Positions 58,788 to 63,744 of a stretch of 64,000 bases of DNA are shown in pieces. The notes under the pieces are model-generated. The model was not told the DNA's origin. It saw only the letters and a list, made by a program, of their open reading frames with translations, and made no database searches. Positions within the stretch are counted from its first letter, which is position 1, and every line of letters begins with the position of its first letter. Both the position numbers and the translations under genes were made by a program. Location of the stretch: the NCBI RefSeq assembly GCF_046105845.1, contig NZ_CP151004.1. The stretch is one strand, 5' to 3'. The DNA is from Escherichia coli (GTDB taxonomy: Bacteria; Pseudomonadota; Gammaproteobacteria; Enterobacterales; Enterobacteriaceae).

Positions 58788-58861
58788 GCGGGCGTAGTTC
58801 AATGGTAGAACGAGAGCTTCCCAAGCTCTATACGAGGGTTCGATTCCCTTCGCCCGCTCCA
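58788..58861 (+). tRNA. glyU: tRNA-Gly (anticodon CCC)
   Basis: 74 nt: acceptor stem gcgggcg/cgcccgc, anticodon loop cttCCCaag, T-arm ggttcgattcc, and 3' end ...tcca (CCA not encoded). Confidence 0.93.
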
Positions 58862-59081: not shown

Positions 59082-60704
59082 ATGGAATCTTTTATGAAAG
59101 GGAAATCTACATTAACTCTTCTGCTCGCTGGTATATTTTCATGCGGCACATGCCAGGCGACAGGGGCAGAAGTGACGAGTGAATCTGTATTTAACATTCT
59201 TAATTCCACGGGGGCAGCAACTGATAAAAGTTATTTATCGTTAAATCCAGATAAGTATCCTAATTATCGTCTTCTGATTCACTCAGCCAAATTAAAAAAT
59301 GAAATAAAGAGCCACTATACCAAAGACGAAATTCAAGGATTGTTAACATTAACAGAAAATACACGAAAGTTAACGTTGACGGAGAAACCCTGGGGAACAT
59401 TTATTCTTGCTTCTACTTTCGAAGATGACAAAACAGCGGCAGAAACCCACTATGATGCTGTCTGGCTGAGGGATAGTTTATGGGGCTATATGGCATTAGT
59501 ATCAGAACAGGGAAATAGTGTAGCCGCAAAAAAGGTTCTGCTCACTCTGTGGGATTATATGTCTACGCCCGACCAGATTAAGCGGATGCAGGATGTCATT
59601 AGCAACCCAAAACGACTGGATGGAATTCCCGGGCAAATGAATGCTGTGCATATCCGATTTGACAGCAACTCCCCCGTGATGGCAGATGTGCAGGAAGAAG
59701 GCAAGCCGCAGCTGTGGAACCATAAACAAAATGATGCTTTAGGTCTTTATCTTGATCTCCTTATACAAGCAATCGACACTGGTACTATTAACGCTGAAGA
59801 CTGGGAAAAAGGTGACCGATTAAAATCGATTGCGCTGTTGGTTGCTTATCTGGATAAAGCCAATTTCTATGTTATGGAAGATTCCGGAGCGTGGGAAGAA
59901 GATGCCAGATTAAACACATCTTCCGTTGCACTGGTGACCTCTGGACTGGAACGTTTGTCGAACTTACTCTCGAAGAAAGACTCTGTTTTTATCTCTGATT
60001 TACTACGCGAAGCTAAAGCCAATGAACTGGATGAAACTCTTTCAACAACGAGGTTGAACCATCTCATAGATAAAGGGTATGAAAGAATAACGCTACAGCT
60101 TGATTTAGGGGGAGAATCCCCTGGTTATCTGGAAAAAGATAAACATTACAGAGAAGCTGATGCGGCCTTACTTAATGTTATTTATCCTGCAAATCTTTCA
60201 AAGATAAATACCAGAAGAAAAGAGCAAGTTCTAAAAATAGTTAAAAAACTAGCAGGTCCGTATGGTATAAAAAGATACGAGAAGGATAATTATCAGTCGG
60301 CAAATTTTTGGTTCAATGATATTAAAACTGATACTGATGAAAATTCACATGCGAAAAGAGAAAAGAGCTTCATTCCATCAACAGAAGCAGAATGGTTTTT
60401 TGACTCATGGTATGCAAAATCAGCAGCAATTGTTTATAAAGAATCAAGAAAAGAAGAATATTTGAATGACTCAGTGCAATTTATGAATAGATCATTGGCC
60501 CAAATAACAGGCGAGAATATGATTGGTGCAAATGGCAGGAGCGTACCTGAAATGGCACTTCCCGAAAGCTATAACTATATCCACAAGTCAGGAACTTTGC
60601 ATGAAGCGCCAAGCCCTATCATTCCGCTAAACTGGTCGAAAGCCTCAATGACTCTTATGTTGAAAGAAATGTCCAACCTTATCAATGATGAGGGAATTAA
60701 ATAG
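59082..60704 (+). CDS. Secreted glycoside-hydrolase-like protein, GH15 (glucoamylase-like) motifs
   Basis: Signal peptide MKGKSTLTLLLAGIFSCGTCQA; motifs AVWLRDSLWGY and EDSGAWEEDARLN resemble the GH15 substrate-binding Arg and catalytic acid regions. Start ambiguous (ATG at 59082 or 59094). Probably corresponds to the ygeQ locus, which is a pseudogene in K-12. Confidence 0.6.
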   Translation: MESFMKGKSTLTLLLAGIFSCGTCQATGAEVTSESVFNILNSTGAATDKSYLSLNPDKYPNYRLLIHSAKLKNEIKSHYTKDEIQGLLTLTENTRKLTLTEKPWGTFILASTFEDDKTAAETHYDAVWLRDSLWGYMALVSEQGNSVAAKKVLLTLWDYMSTPDQIKRMQDVISNPKRLDGIPGQMNAVHIRFDSNSPVMADVQEEGKPQLWNHKQNDALGLYLDLLIQAIDTGTINAEDWEKGDRLKSIALLVAYLDKANFYVMEDSGAWEEDARLNTSSVALVTSGLERLSNLLSKKDSVFISDLLREAKANELDETLSTTRLNHLIDKGYERITLQLDLGGESPGYLEKDKHYREADAALLNVIYPANLSKINTRRKEQVLKIVKKLAGPYGIKRYEKDNYQSANFWFNDIKTDTDENSHAKREKSFIPSTEAEWFFDSWYAKSAAIVYKESRKEEYLNDSVQFMNRSLAQITGENMIGANGRSVPEMALPESYNYIHKSGTLHEAPSPIIPLNWSKASMTLMLKEMSNLINDEGIK

Positions 60705-60769
60705 TTTTCATAATGAGGCGGTCCTGGATTAAAAGGACCGCTCAAAGAGAAATCGTAAGGGAGGTAAAA

Positions 60770-60949
60770 GTGATCAATAAATTACTGTTAGCTTACCTGA
60801 TAGGTCTGGTTGTGACATCGACCTTAATATTTATCTTCTCGGAAGAAAAAGTAACATATCGGTTGTTTGCTGCAGTAATTACAGGGTTGACCTGGCCGCT
60901 TAGCCTCATTCCATCCATCATAAGTCTCATGATTCGTAAATCCGACTAA
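60770..60949 (+). CDS. Small (59-aa) two-helix membrane protein
   Basis: Strong SD aagggagg 6 nt upstream of GTG 60770; two hydrophobic segments (LLLAYLIGLVVTSTLIFIF; LFAAVITGLTWPLSLIPSIISLMI). The track ORF from 60713 lacks an SD. Confidence 0.45.
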   Translation: MINKLLLAYLIGLVVTSTLIFIFSEEKVTYRLFAAVITGLTWPLSLIPSIISLMIRKSD

Positions 60950-61294
60950 CAAGAAAATTATATGAACGATTAAGAAAAATAGAATCGAAAAAGAGAATAA
61001 AATATATGCGGGGAGTAACAAAACACTCGCAGTACGTTAATGTGTAACTAACAAATATGATTTTTATTGAAAATAGTCACCAAACAAGTGTTATAAGAAA
61101 TACGGGGTATGTTTAAGTAAAACATATCAACAGTTGCAATTCTGTATATGGACAGGATGACTTACTACTGTAAGTGGCTGATAGCTATTCGCTCATAACA
61201 AAATCATTATTTTATAAATAGTAATCATCACTTTTTAATCATGTTTTTATAGCAAGTTTATGGAGAATGAGAATATGGAATAAGGAGATGAAAC

Positions 61295-62044
61295 ATGATT
61301 GAAGAAGGGCTGTTACTTCCAATGAATGTTTTGCTTCAAGGACAGAAGTTAACCCTACTGGACCCTGAAATGTGGTTCTTACGGGGAAATGAAAACAAGG
61401 ATGTAACCCTTGTTATTACGATTGGTAATAACCATCAAAAATTAATGGTAGTGGAAGATATATTACTGCTCATTGACCGAAGCCAAATTGAGGTAACTGC
61501 AGGGAAAGTAATTTATCATCCACTTCGCATTGATATCCTGAGTAAATTATTAGCTTTTATAGATGAATCAACGGGGAGTGTGGAAAGGGAACACCATGAA
61601 TTGTTTGCTGATGCCTTGCCCTTTGCATCAGAAGTTGTGCTATTCAGTAAAGTTGCAAGTGAAGCCTGGTTTTTAGCCACTTATCTGAGCAGCGATAATA
61701 TTAATGAAATTCTGTTTCAGCATCTAAGAAAAACAGAATGCTATAAACTGGTTCGCTATTTATTATCGCAATCGCTCATACAGACTTCACTCTATGATCT
61801 TGGTGAGCTTTACGGCGTATCGTATTCACATTTTCGCCGTTTATGTAGTTATGCATTGGGTGGTAAAGTTAAAACGGAATTATGTGGCTGGAGAGTTGCC
61901 AGAGCCGTGTTGGAAATCATTGAAGGAAACAGTGATATGACAACTATTGCGCATAAATATGGCTACTCATCCTCATCACACTTTTCAGCCGAAGTAAAAA
62001 GCCGGTTAGGAAAAACACCGAGAGAACTATGTAAAAAGTTATGA
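61295..62044 (+). CDS. eivF: AraC-family T3SS transcriptional activator (InvF-like)
   Basis: 249 aa; C-terminal AraC HTH (TIAHKYGYSSSSHFSAEVKSRLGKTPREL); SD aaggag upstream; stop overlaps the secretin start (ATGA). Confidence 0.7.
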   Translation: MIEEGLLLPMNVLLQGQKLTLLDPEMWFLRGNENKDVTLVITIGNNHQKLMVVEDILLLIDRSQIEVTAGKVIYHPLRIDILSKLLAFIDESTGSVEREHHELFADALPFASEVVLFSKVASEAWFLATYLSSDNINEILFQHLRKTECYKLVRYLLSQSLIQTSLYDLGELYGVSYSHFRRLCSYALGGKVKTELCGWRVARAVLEIIEGNSDMTTIAHKYGYSSSSHFSAEVKSRLGKTPRELCKKL

Positions 62045-63744
62045 AAATAAAATTACGTATTACTATTATATTAATTTCAGCCTTATGCATTTTTAATGGA
62101 TTATTGACTCCTGGTGCATATGCCGCAACAGCGAATGGATACGTAGCAAATAAAGAAAATCTACGTAGTTTTTTTGAAACGGTTTCATCATATGCGGGTA
62201 AGCCTACAATAGTAAGTAAGCTTGCCATGAAGAAACAGATCAGCGGAAATTTTGATTTAACCGAACCCTATGCCTTGATTGAACGCCTGTCGGCGCAGAT
62301 GGGACTTATTTGGTACGATGATGGCAAAGCTATTTATATCTATGACTCATCAGAGATGCGTAATGCGCTGATTAATCTGAGAAAGGTATCGACGAATGAG
62401 TTTAATAATTTTTTAAAAAAATCGGGTCTGTATAACTCTCGTTATGAAATTAAAGGGGGCGGCAATGGTACTTTCTATGTATCGGGGCCACCAGTTTATG
62501 TTGACCTGGTCGTTAATGCTGCAAAATTAATGGAGCAAAACAGTGATGGCATCGAGATCGGACGCAATAAAGTAGGGATTATTCACCTGGTCAACACATT
62601 CGTTAATGATCGGACTTATGAATTACGTGGCGAAAAGATAGTTATTCCTGGCATGGCAAAAGTACTATCGACGTTGTTAAATAATAACATTAAGCAAAGC
62701 ACTGGGGTTAACGTACTTTCTGAAATTTCAAGTCGTCAACAACTAAAAAACGTATCACGTATGCCTCCTTTTCCTGGTGCTGAAGAAGATGATGATCTAC
62801 AAGTAGAGAAAATAATATCGACAGCTGGAGCGCCAGAGACTGACGATATACAAATTATTGCATATCCTGATACCAACAGTTTACTTGTTAAAGGAACAGT
62901 ATCTCAGGTTGATTTTATCGAGAAGTTAGTAGCTACACTCGATATTCCAAAGCGACACATTGAATTATCTTTATGGATAATAGATATTGATAAGACTGAT
63001 TTAGAACAGTTAGGAGCTGACTGGTCGGGCACGATAAAAATTGGATCCAGCCTAAGTGCATCATTTAATAATTCAGGTTCAATTAGTACCCTGGATGGGA
63101 CACAGTTTATTGCAACAATACAGGCACTTGCGCAAAAAAGAAGAGCCGCCGTTGTTGCTCGTCCTGTCGTTTTAACACAGGAGAATATTCCTGCTATATT
63201 TGATAATAACCGTACTTTCTATACTAAATTAGTCGGCGAGCGTACTGCGGAGTTGGATGAAGTAACCTATGGTACGATGATTAGCGTGCTACCACGATTT
63301 GCTTCGCGAAATCAAATTGAATTACTCTTGAATATTGAAGATGGCAATGAAATCAATTCTGACAAGACCAATGTTGATGATCTGCCTCAGGTTGGTAGAA
63401 CGCTTATAAGTACTATTGCGCGCGTGCCTCAAGGGAAAAGTCTTTTGATTGGTGGATATACACGAGATACGAATACCTATGAAAGTCGCAAGATCCCAAT
63501 ATTAGGCAGTATTCCATTTATTGGTAAATTATTTGGATATGAAGGAACAAATGCGAATAACATCGTTCGTGTCTTTCTTATTGAGCCAAGAGAGATCGAT
63601 GAGCGCATGATGAATAATGCGAATGAGGCTTCGGTTGACGCCAGAGCAATAACACAGCAAATGGCAAAAAATAAAGAAATCAACGATGAATTACTGCAGA
63701 AATGGATAAAAACTTACCTGAATCGTGAAGTCGTCGGAGGATAG
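62041..63744 (+). CDS. eivG: Type III secretion outer-membrane secretin (SctC / InvG family)
   Basis: 567 aa; signal peptide; secretin C-domain motifs (VPILGSIPFIGKLFG). Confidence 0.8.
   Translation: MKIKLRITIILISALCIFNGLLTPGAYAATANGYVANKENLRSFFETVSSYAGKPTIVSKLAMKKQISGNFDLTEPYALIERLSAQMGLIWYDDGKAIYIYDSSEMRNALINLRKVSTNEFNNFLKKSGLYNSRYEIKGGGNGTFYVSGPPVYVDLVVNAAKLMEQNSDGIEIGRNKVGIIHLVNTFVNDRTYELRGEKIVIPGMAKVLSTLLNNNIKQSTGVNVLSEISSRQQLKNVSRMPPFPGAEEDDDLQVEKIISTAGAPETDDIQIIAYPDTNSLLVKGTVSQVDFIEKLVATLDIPKRHIELSLWIIDIDKTDLEQLGADWSGTIKIGSSLSASFNNSGSISTLDGTQFIATIQALAQKRRAAVVARPVVLTQENIPAIFDNNRTFYTKLVGERTAELDEVTYGTMISVLPRFASRNQIELLLNIEDGNEINSDKTNVDDLPQVGRTLISTIARVPQGKSLLIGGYTRDTNTYESRKIPILGSIPFIGKLFGYEGTNANNIVRVFLIEPREIDERMMNNANEASVDARAITQQMAKNKEINDELLQKWIKTYLNREVVGG

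Follow-up and report, generated by a model that had tools for sequence, protein, structure and literature searches.

ECs3735 at the glyU end of the Escherichia coli ETT2 island encodes a conserved membrane protein of the GhoT/OrtT family adjoining a GH15 gene

GhoT (YjdO, b4559) and OrtT (YdcX, b1445) of Escherichia coli belong to one family of small proteins of about 57 aa with two transmembrane helices (Pfam PF10753, Toxin_GhoT_OrtT). OrtT is linked to tetrahydrofolate stress and to the stringent response. GhoT has ghoS upstream, the two forming the type V GhoST pair. Both proteins cause lysis, membrane damage and loss of ATP, and they share 63% identity, but OrtT lacks an antitoxin and GhoS does not counteract it (PMC4344625). 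The F38R substitution abolishes the toxicity of GhoT and reduces that of OrtT (PMC4344625). Two further groups bear comparison: the type I toxins Hok, TisB and Ldr, small hydrophobic inner-membrane peptides that depolarise the membrane, and the class II holins of type 10 release systems, two-helix small proteins encoded beside a glycoside hydrolase. A gene table of the E. coli ETT2 island lists a further relative, ECs3735 (180 bp), as a 'ydcX' homologue and 'inner membrane protein' (PMC3977695).

In the window (the whole 64-kb stretch of E. coli DNA analysed here), ECs3735 lies at the glyU end of the ETT2 island, in the gene order glyU, GH15, ECs3735, eivF, eivG/sctC. The features of this region are the following:

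58788-58861, plus strand: glyU, tRNA-Gly(CCC), chromosomal landmark beside the start of the low-GC ETT2 island (ARAGORN, RefSeq, ETT2 literature)
59094-60704, plus strand: GH15 gene (ygeQ / pkgA-like, 536 aa; Pfam, PGAP start)
60660-60689, plus strand: weak sigma-70-like match, TTGAAA-18-AATGAT, at the 3' end of the GH15 gene (consensus scan, 9/12)
60718-60741, plus strand: GC-rich stem-loop with a 7-bp core, GCGGTCC/GGACCGC, and a 10-nt loop (folding, conservation)
60757-60764, plus strand: Shine-Dalgarno sequence AAGGGAGG, 5 nt before the start codon
60770-60949, plus strand: ECs3735, small membrane protein gene of the GhoT/OrtT family (Pfam, PGAP, conservation)
60773-60838, plus strand: first transmembrane helix, codons 2-23 (hydropathy, AlphaFold2)
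60851-60943, plus strand: second hydrophobic helix, codons 28-58 (hydropathy, AlphaFold2, family alignment)
60950-61294, plus strand: AT-rich spacer before eivF, 29% GC
61295-62044, plus strand: eivF, InvF-like AraC regulator of ETT2 (Pfam HTH_18/HTH_AraC, RefSeq)
62041-63744: eivG/sctC

The GC content of ECs3735, the GH15 gene and eivF was about 39-40%, compared to 50% for the window. The ECs3735 ORF comprises 180 nt, 59 codons plus a TAA stop ending at 60949, and its product from the GTG start (60770-60772) is MINKLLLAYLIGLVVTSTLIFIFSEEKVTYRLFAAVITGLTWPLSLIPSIISLMIRKSD. A sequence-only reading of this DNA had described a 59-aa ORF opened by GTG, a hairpin after the stop codon of the hydrolase gene, and a strong Shine-Dalgarno sequence six nucleotides from the start. 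The ORF (60770-60949) and the hairpin were found as described, the latter with arms GCGGTCC at 60718-60724 and GGACCGC at 60735-60741, downstream of the stop at 60704; the Shine-Dalgarno sequence and the GTG were also in place, but the spacer between them (TAAAA) was 5 nt long and not 6. Since many ORFs of 30-80 aa arise nearby by chance, the length of the ORF is not significant by itself, and ECs3735 was considered a real gene because of its Pfam match, its conservation and its synteny. Several gene finders and pipelines called instead a 78-aa form starting at an ATG at 60713. This was rejected as the conserved form because in E. albertii an in-frame stop lies shortly before the ATG of the orthologue, and because the N-termini of GhoT and OrtT align with the GTG start.

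The product of ECs3735 matched PF10753 with 45 bits (E = 1.3e-11; gathering cut-off 22.1), a family also matched by all 8 aligned relatives, so that the earlier guess of a toxin or regulator, made from the letters alone, now points to the GhoT/OrtT toxin family. K-12 GhoT shared 39% identity with it over 46 residues (E = 2e-12), OrtT about 25%. The residues common to GhoT and OrtT, a Tyr in helix 1, a Ser-x-Glu/Asp-Lys loop, an Arg and Gly-x-Thr-Trp-Pro-x-Ser, are present in ECs3735. In an alignment of 8 sequences including GhoT and OrtT, all the invariant columns (Y9, S24, R31, G39, T41, W42, P43 and S45) were kept by ECs3735, and the motifs Y, S-x-E-K, R and G-x-TWP-x-S are common to ECs3735 and GhoT. 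The two proteins are similar in length (59 and 57 aa) and both have two hydrophobic helices; ECs3735 differs from GhoT in its GTG start, in an extra charged C-terminal tail (MIRKSD) and in having Val or Ile in place of Phe38. The equivalent residue is Val36 in ECs3735 and Ile in other E. coli lineages; among the relatives from Yersinia and E. albertii, Val, Ser and Ile all occur. This position is therefore neither invariant in the family nor diagnostic, and loss of function is not predicted from a hydrophobic replacement there.

The two hydrophobic helices proposed from the DNA alone were borne out by a transmembrane-helix check, in which hydropathy maxima and AlphaFold2 helices agreed. Kyte-Doolittle 19-residue means reached 2.54 for residues 5-23 and about 1.7 for residues 32-55, and the GRAVY value of the whole protein was 1.12. 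The AlphaFold2 model (8 homologues, mean pLDDT 85) contained helices at residues 2-23, 28-40 and 46-58, with a short turn after the first and a break at TWP, the second hydrophobic helix being kinked at the family-invariant G39-x-T41-W42-P43-x-S45. With 59 aa and two such helices, ECs3735 has the length and topology of a GhoT/OrtT protein. No specific model was matched in NCBIfam, no match at the ECs3735 locus was obtained with PADLOC, and no relative of the protein was found in the PDB. The best PHROGs hit had an E of 0.019, to families of unknown function, and neither PHROGs nor Pfam returned a holin-family match.

Neither the gene nor its placement in the family is new, both being recorded in public annotation and in ETT2 papers. 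The suggestion that an ORF of this kind might have escaped annotation did not hold: RefSeq/PGAP annotates a CDS with identical coordinates as 'GhoT/OrtT family toxin' (WP_001305821.1), and the gene is ECs3735 of the published ETT2 table (PMC3977695). The exact protein sequence has the UniProt entry Q2TJ82 and was found on at least 1000 contigs. In the published literature searched we found no experimental work on the ECs3735 protein: it is passed over in ETT2 reviews, and an ETT2-borne copy goes unmentioned in papers on GhoT and OrtT. What is added here are distribution counts, purifying selection, and a pairing with GH15, including an intergenic stem-loop, that is independent of secretion genes; no mention of the distribution, the selection or the pairing was found in the literature covered by our incomplete search. 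The practical value is small, in that the long-annotated ECs3735 is confirmed as real, conserved and a relative of GhoT and OrtT.

The full ECs3735 ORF was present in 1325 of the 5426 complete E. coli genomes (24%), and 60 out of 60 copies, sampled evenly down the ranking, aligned over positions 1-180 without gaps and were annotated as a CDS. Compared with the O157:H7 sequence, ECs3735 showed 6 synonymous differences and 1 non-synonymous difference (dN/dS of about 0.05), and compared with the E. albertii orthologue a pN of 0.23 and a pS of 0.79. Six E. coli-type sequences, one of them from a contig labelled as a Collinsella MAG, contained 11 polymorphic sites, 7 of them synonymous and 4 conservative (S17L, L19F, A35T and V36I); the GTG, the Shine-Dalgarno sequence and the hairpin were unchanged across all six. 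The frame was thus kept in all 60 sampled copies with an excess of synonymous change, the opposite of the lost frame that the sequence-only reading had named as refuting, and ECs3735 is under purifying selection. In the same species ghoST is found in 97-98% of complete genomes and ortT in 99.7%. GhoT is thus near-core, and OrtT has its own locus with other neighbours; ECs3735, at 24%, is a third, accessory paralogue, which K-12 lacks.

Relatives were few. An exhaustive phmmer search of 1.8 billion cluster representatives returned only 12 at E ≤ 0.001, and a scan of species-representative genomes found a single locus, on an E. coli-like contig binned as Collinsella; the ECs3735 sub-clade, whose non-E. 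coli members have the motif TWPLSLIP in common, is either rare or was missed by the narrow peptide pattern of the scan. The Collinsella record (JAIJJM010000090.1, 'MAG: Collinsella sp.', locus L009) is a 7.8-kb contig that encodes the identical ECs3735 protein with one synonymous DNA difference and is almost certainly a mis-binned E. coli contig. The only match to ECs3735 in PLSDB was NZ_CP134663.1, a 4.9-Mb E. coli record and evidently a chromosome filed as a plasmid.

Unlike GhoT, ECs3735 has a GH15 hydrolase gene and not ghoS upstream, its neighbours being an enzyme gene (GH15) and a regulator gene (eivF). By tblastn, GhoS was found neither in the 64-kb window nor in eight related loci (best E = 0.39), and neither YdcY nor any other antitoxin was found; residues 16-53 of GhoS repeatedly matched the C-terminal part of GH15, with non-significant E values of 0.4-9. 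As judged from these searches, ECs3735 is not part of a GhoST type V system, because an adjacent ghoS antitoxin gene was looked for and was absent. With no GhoS gene beside it, it therefore resembles the orphan OrtT rather than the GhoST pair, although an unrecognised antitoxin, or protection by GH15, might escape an analysis of sequence. The likeness to type I toxins extends to size, hydrophobicity and the membrane. It differs from them in that no Rfam match, to an antitoxin RNA or otherwise, was obtained in 60400-61400, in the upstream gap of only 65 nt, and in a ribosome-binding site that was not sequestered beyond controls.

The 65-nt intergenic RNA between the GH15 gene and ECs3735 folded more stably than any of 200 shuffles, at -19.7 kcal/mol (z = -3.5). 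The GCGGTCC/GGACCGC motif was unique in the window and the stem-loop was invariant in five E. coli loci. A stem-loop was present in the gap between GH15 and the small gene in all five loci with that gene order, their sequences being different; outside E. coli these were:

E. albertii gap: 17-bp stem, -25.6 kcal/mol, z = -6.0
Yersinia L008 gap: 12-bp stem, z = -3.8
Yersinia L007 and L010 gaps: 9-bp stem, z of about -1.1 for the whole gap

The hairpin of the Yersinia loci was followed by a U-rich stretch and 60-70 nt, which leaves room for a separate promoter. As no U-tract follows the stem in E. coli, an intrinsic terminator at this hairpin was rejected. Since there is no U-rich stretch, and the GTG is reached 28 nt after the stem, ECs3735 would be co-transcribed with GH15, and the hairpin between them would be leaky or stabilising. 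The sigma-70-like match at 60660-60689 was discarded as a promoter of its own, sites of this quality being at chance level (9 in the region versus 7.6 ± 2.9 in shuffled sequence), as was a terminator-like match at 60808-60823, which lies inside the ORF and belongs to a class found at chance frequency. No recognisable intrinsic terminator was found in 60950-61294, between ECs3735 and eivF.

The Shine-Dalgarno sequence, kept as (G)GGGAGG in other E. coli lineages, was largely unpaired in the local fold of the intergenic RNA. A long-range pairing of the Shine-Dalgarno sequence and start codon with codons 43-46, seen in the minimum-energy fold of the full mRNA, failed its control: in 7 orthologous mRNAs the ribosome-binding site was no more paired than in codon-shuffled versions, and there is therefore no evidence for a conserved translational lock.

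With the family membership, topology, conservation, absence of GhoS and GH15 linkage observed at this locus, we think it somewhat probable that ECs3735 is an orphan membrane-damaging protein of the GhoT/OrtT type, co-transcribed with GH15 at a low level. It would be the third, accessory E. coli paralogue of the family, a 59-aa helical hairpin in the inner membrane, orphan like OrtT and not one half of a type V pair. By homology, its overproduction would be expected to damage the cytoplasmic membrane and to collapse the proton-motive force and ATP, resulting in slow growth or lysis; this toxicity is extrapolated from relatives that are 25-39% identical. GH15 and ECs3735 may form a two-gene unit in which the transcript reads through the stem-loop lacking a U-tract, this read-through keeping the level of ECs3735 below that of the hydrolase, and translation would start at the GTG from the strong Shine-Dalgarno sequence. 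Three features count against a toxin: Phe38 is replaced by Val or Ile, though the change is conservative; a strong Shine-Dalgarno sequence in an unoccluded ribosome-binding site is unusual for a lethal product, unless transcription is very low; and the gene adjoins GH15 so strictly that a function connected with the enzyme is hinted at.

That last feature leads to the strongest competitor of the orphan-toxin reading, which we regard as unlikely but not negligible. ECs3735 would here be the partner of a secreted GH15 enzyme, either as a holin-like or lysis-type factor that releases the periplasmic hydrolase from the cell, or as a subunit or regulator in the membrane by which the enzyme is tethered or gated. 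The GH15 protein matched Pfam PF00723 with 27.1 bits (cut-off 22) and had in the PDB only a weak match, to the GH15-like domain of phosphorylase kinase (beta). Its N-terminus, MKGKSTLTLLLAGIFSCGTCQA|T, aligns with the ..AQA|S of the Yersinia orthologues and would be a signal peptide, making the enzyme a secreted one; signal-peptide-like N-termini were present on all the GH15 proteins compared, as a secreted partner would have them.

The linkage itself was strict. Every relative of the sub-clade found outside E. coli (n = 5, 44-60% identical) adjoined an orthologous GH15 gene (59-77% identical), so that adjacency holds for E. coli and for loci L006, L007, L008, L010 and L011. In 4 of the 5 the small gene lies 65-102 nt downstream of GH15 on the same strand (L006, L007, L008 and L010). 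The small protein of E. albertii (L006, whose GH15 shares 99% identity with a protein labelled E. albertii) is 60% identical to ECs3735, and those of the Y. enterocolitica-type loci L007, L008 and L010 are 44-47% identical. Adjacency has survived heavy IS traffic in L010, where the pair is surrounded by IS66, IS110, RES and AbiEii genes, and also re-ordering in L011, where the order of the two genes is reversed and an IS remnant lies between them. Both genes are moreover intact where ETT2 has decayed. The synteny check named by the sequence-only reading thus gave a consistent answer, relatives adjoining GH15 with or without type III secretion genes.

Several observations weigh on the other side. 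GH15 orthologues at 65% (L015) and at 55% and 52% identity (L016/L017 and Commensalibacter L018/L019) had no GhoT-like ORF beside them, and the enzyme therefore does not need the small protein. In O157:H7 (L002 2450-4055) the small ORF is intact despite a frameshift in GH15, the region of which is split into ECs3736 and ECs3737 in the Sakai annotation, and linkage alone keeps genes 65-100 nt apart together. A release function would also sit poorly with the lack of a holin-family match in PHROGs or Pfam, and GH15 is not a known peptidoglycan hydrolase. The resemblance to class II holins, to which the short charged C-terminus of the E. coli and E. albertii versions adds, is architectural only: ECs3735 has no sequence match to holins, and its partner is a GH15 with its own putative signal peptide and not a muramidase. 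The ECs3735-GH15 pair hence does not combine a holin-family protein with a peptidoglycan hydrolase, as holin-endolysin systems do.

A broader version of this partnership, which we hold to be rather doubtful, is that the small protein functions together with the secreted GH15 as a two-gene module, conserved in Escherichia and Yersinia and repeatedly beside SPI-1-type islands, in which the GhoT-like member has a non-suicidal job. Such a module may serve controlled permeabilisation or lysis of a subpopulation that releases the glycosidase, or may couple the enzyme to the energy state of the membrane. If this were true, not all GhoT-family proteins would be toxins of toxin-antitoxin systems. The constant pairing with GH15, independent of type III secretion, offers a cheap, testable lead on the role of such orphan toxins.

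For ECs3735 as a type V toxin controlled in trans, its mRNA being cleaved by chromosomal GhoS from the distant ghoST locus, the chances appear slim. Nearly all carriers would make GhoS, given ghoST in some 97-98% of complete genomes, and no characterised relative is closer to ECs3735 than GhoT (39% identity). GhoS fails, however, to neutralise OrtT, which is 63% identical to GhoT, and in E. albertii and Yersinia the gene accompanies GH15 and not ghoS.

Still less probable is a role of ECs3735 as an accessory membrane component or regulator of ETT2, encoded directly upstream of eivF-eivG. The gene does lie between GH15 and eivF in both E. coli and E. albertii, an InvH-like gene neighbours the small gene in L011, and no clear terminator separates ECs3735 from eivF. 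Against this, no type III secretion genes were present in the fetched Yersinia sequence around the pair (10 kb on each side for L010, about 2-4 kb for L007 and L008), and ECs3735 is kept where ETT2 is degraded: in strains AR434 and N137 (L012 and L013, 2526-4180) GH15 and ECs3735 are intact, with eivF truncated and fused to an eivA fragment and sctN carrying an internal stop. Taken with the frameshifted GH15 of O157:H7, decay of the region is mosaic. We know of no ECs3735-like component in SPI-1-type systems. From these comparisons the GH15-ECs3735 pair appears to be inherited and retained independently of secretion genes.

Finally, although short ORFs are abundant in this AT-rich region, a chance ORF or decaying pseudogene without a product can be dismissed given the Pfam match well over threshold, the synonymous excess, the 60 of 60 intact copies sampled, and the orthologues in other genera that retain frame and length.

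A third GhoT/OrtT paralogue is present in roughly one in four E. coli strains, among them O157:H7 and many extraintestinal lineages. It is relevant to work on persistence and stress tolerance, in which GhoT and OrtT are at present the only members considered.

Other observations were made around the locus. In L015 (357-5647), probably a plasmid, the GH15 gene and prgH-prgI-prgJ-prgK-orgA are divergently oriented, and parA/parB-like and SopD-like genes come after GH15; in L011 (2537-5823) GH15 lies near an InvH-like gene. Judging from these gene orders, GH15 may long have travelled with SPI-1-type secretion islands. A single deletion junction is common to about 1,940 of the 5,426 complete E. 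coli genomes: identity ends at 60717 (L003 3068), immediately before the 5' arm of the hairpin, and an eivJ remnant follows. The hairpin, ECs3735 and the stretch from eivF into eivJ are thereby lost; this is presumably the known large ETT2 deletion.

The non-coding DNA flanking ECs3735 was not conserved between E. coli and E. albertii, except for the eivF leader. The minus strand has a 65-aa ORF with a very hydrophobic N-terminus (60824-61021), antisense to the 3' end of ECs3735 and to the AT-rich spacer; it is probably a chance ORF, as conservation with E. albertii does not extend to the spacer. Upstream of the GH15 start, about 90 nt were conserved between E. coli (59000-59093) and E. albertii (L006 340-432); further upstream the two sequences were unrelated, and no glyU precedes the island in the L006 contig. 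This is consistent with a GH15 promoter in the conserved stretch and with a different insertion context in E. albertii. The last ~95 nt of the spacer before eivF (61200-61294) were likewise conserved with L006 (2545-2638) as the eivF leader, and contain a 7-codon mini-ORF, ATGGAGAATGAGAATATGGAATAA, that ends just before the eivF Shine-Dalgarno sequence, which suggests a conserved leader or a regulator-binding region.
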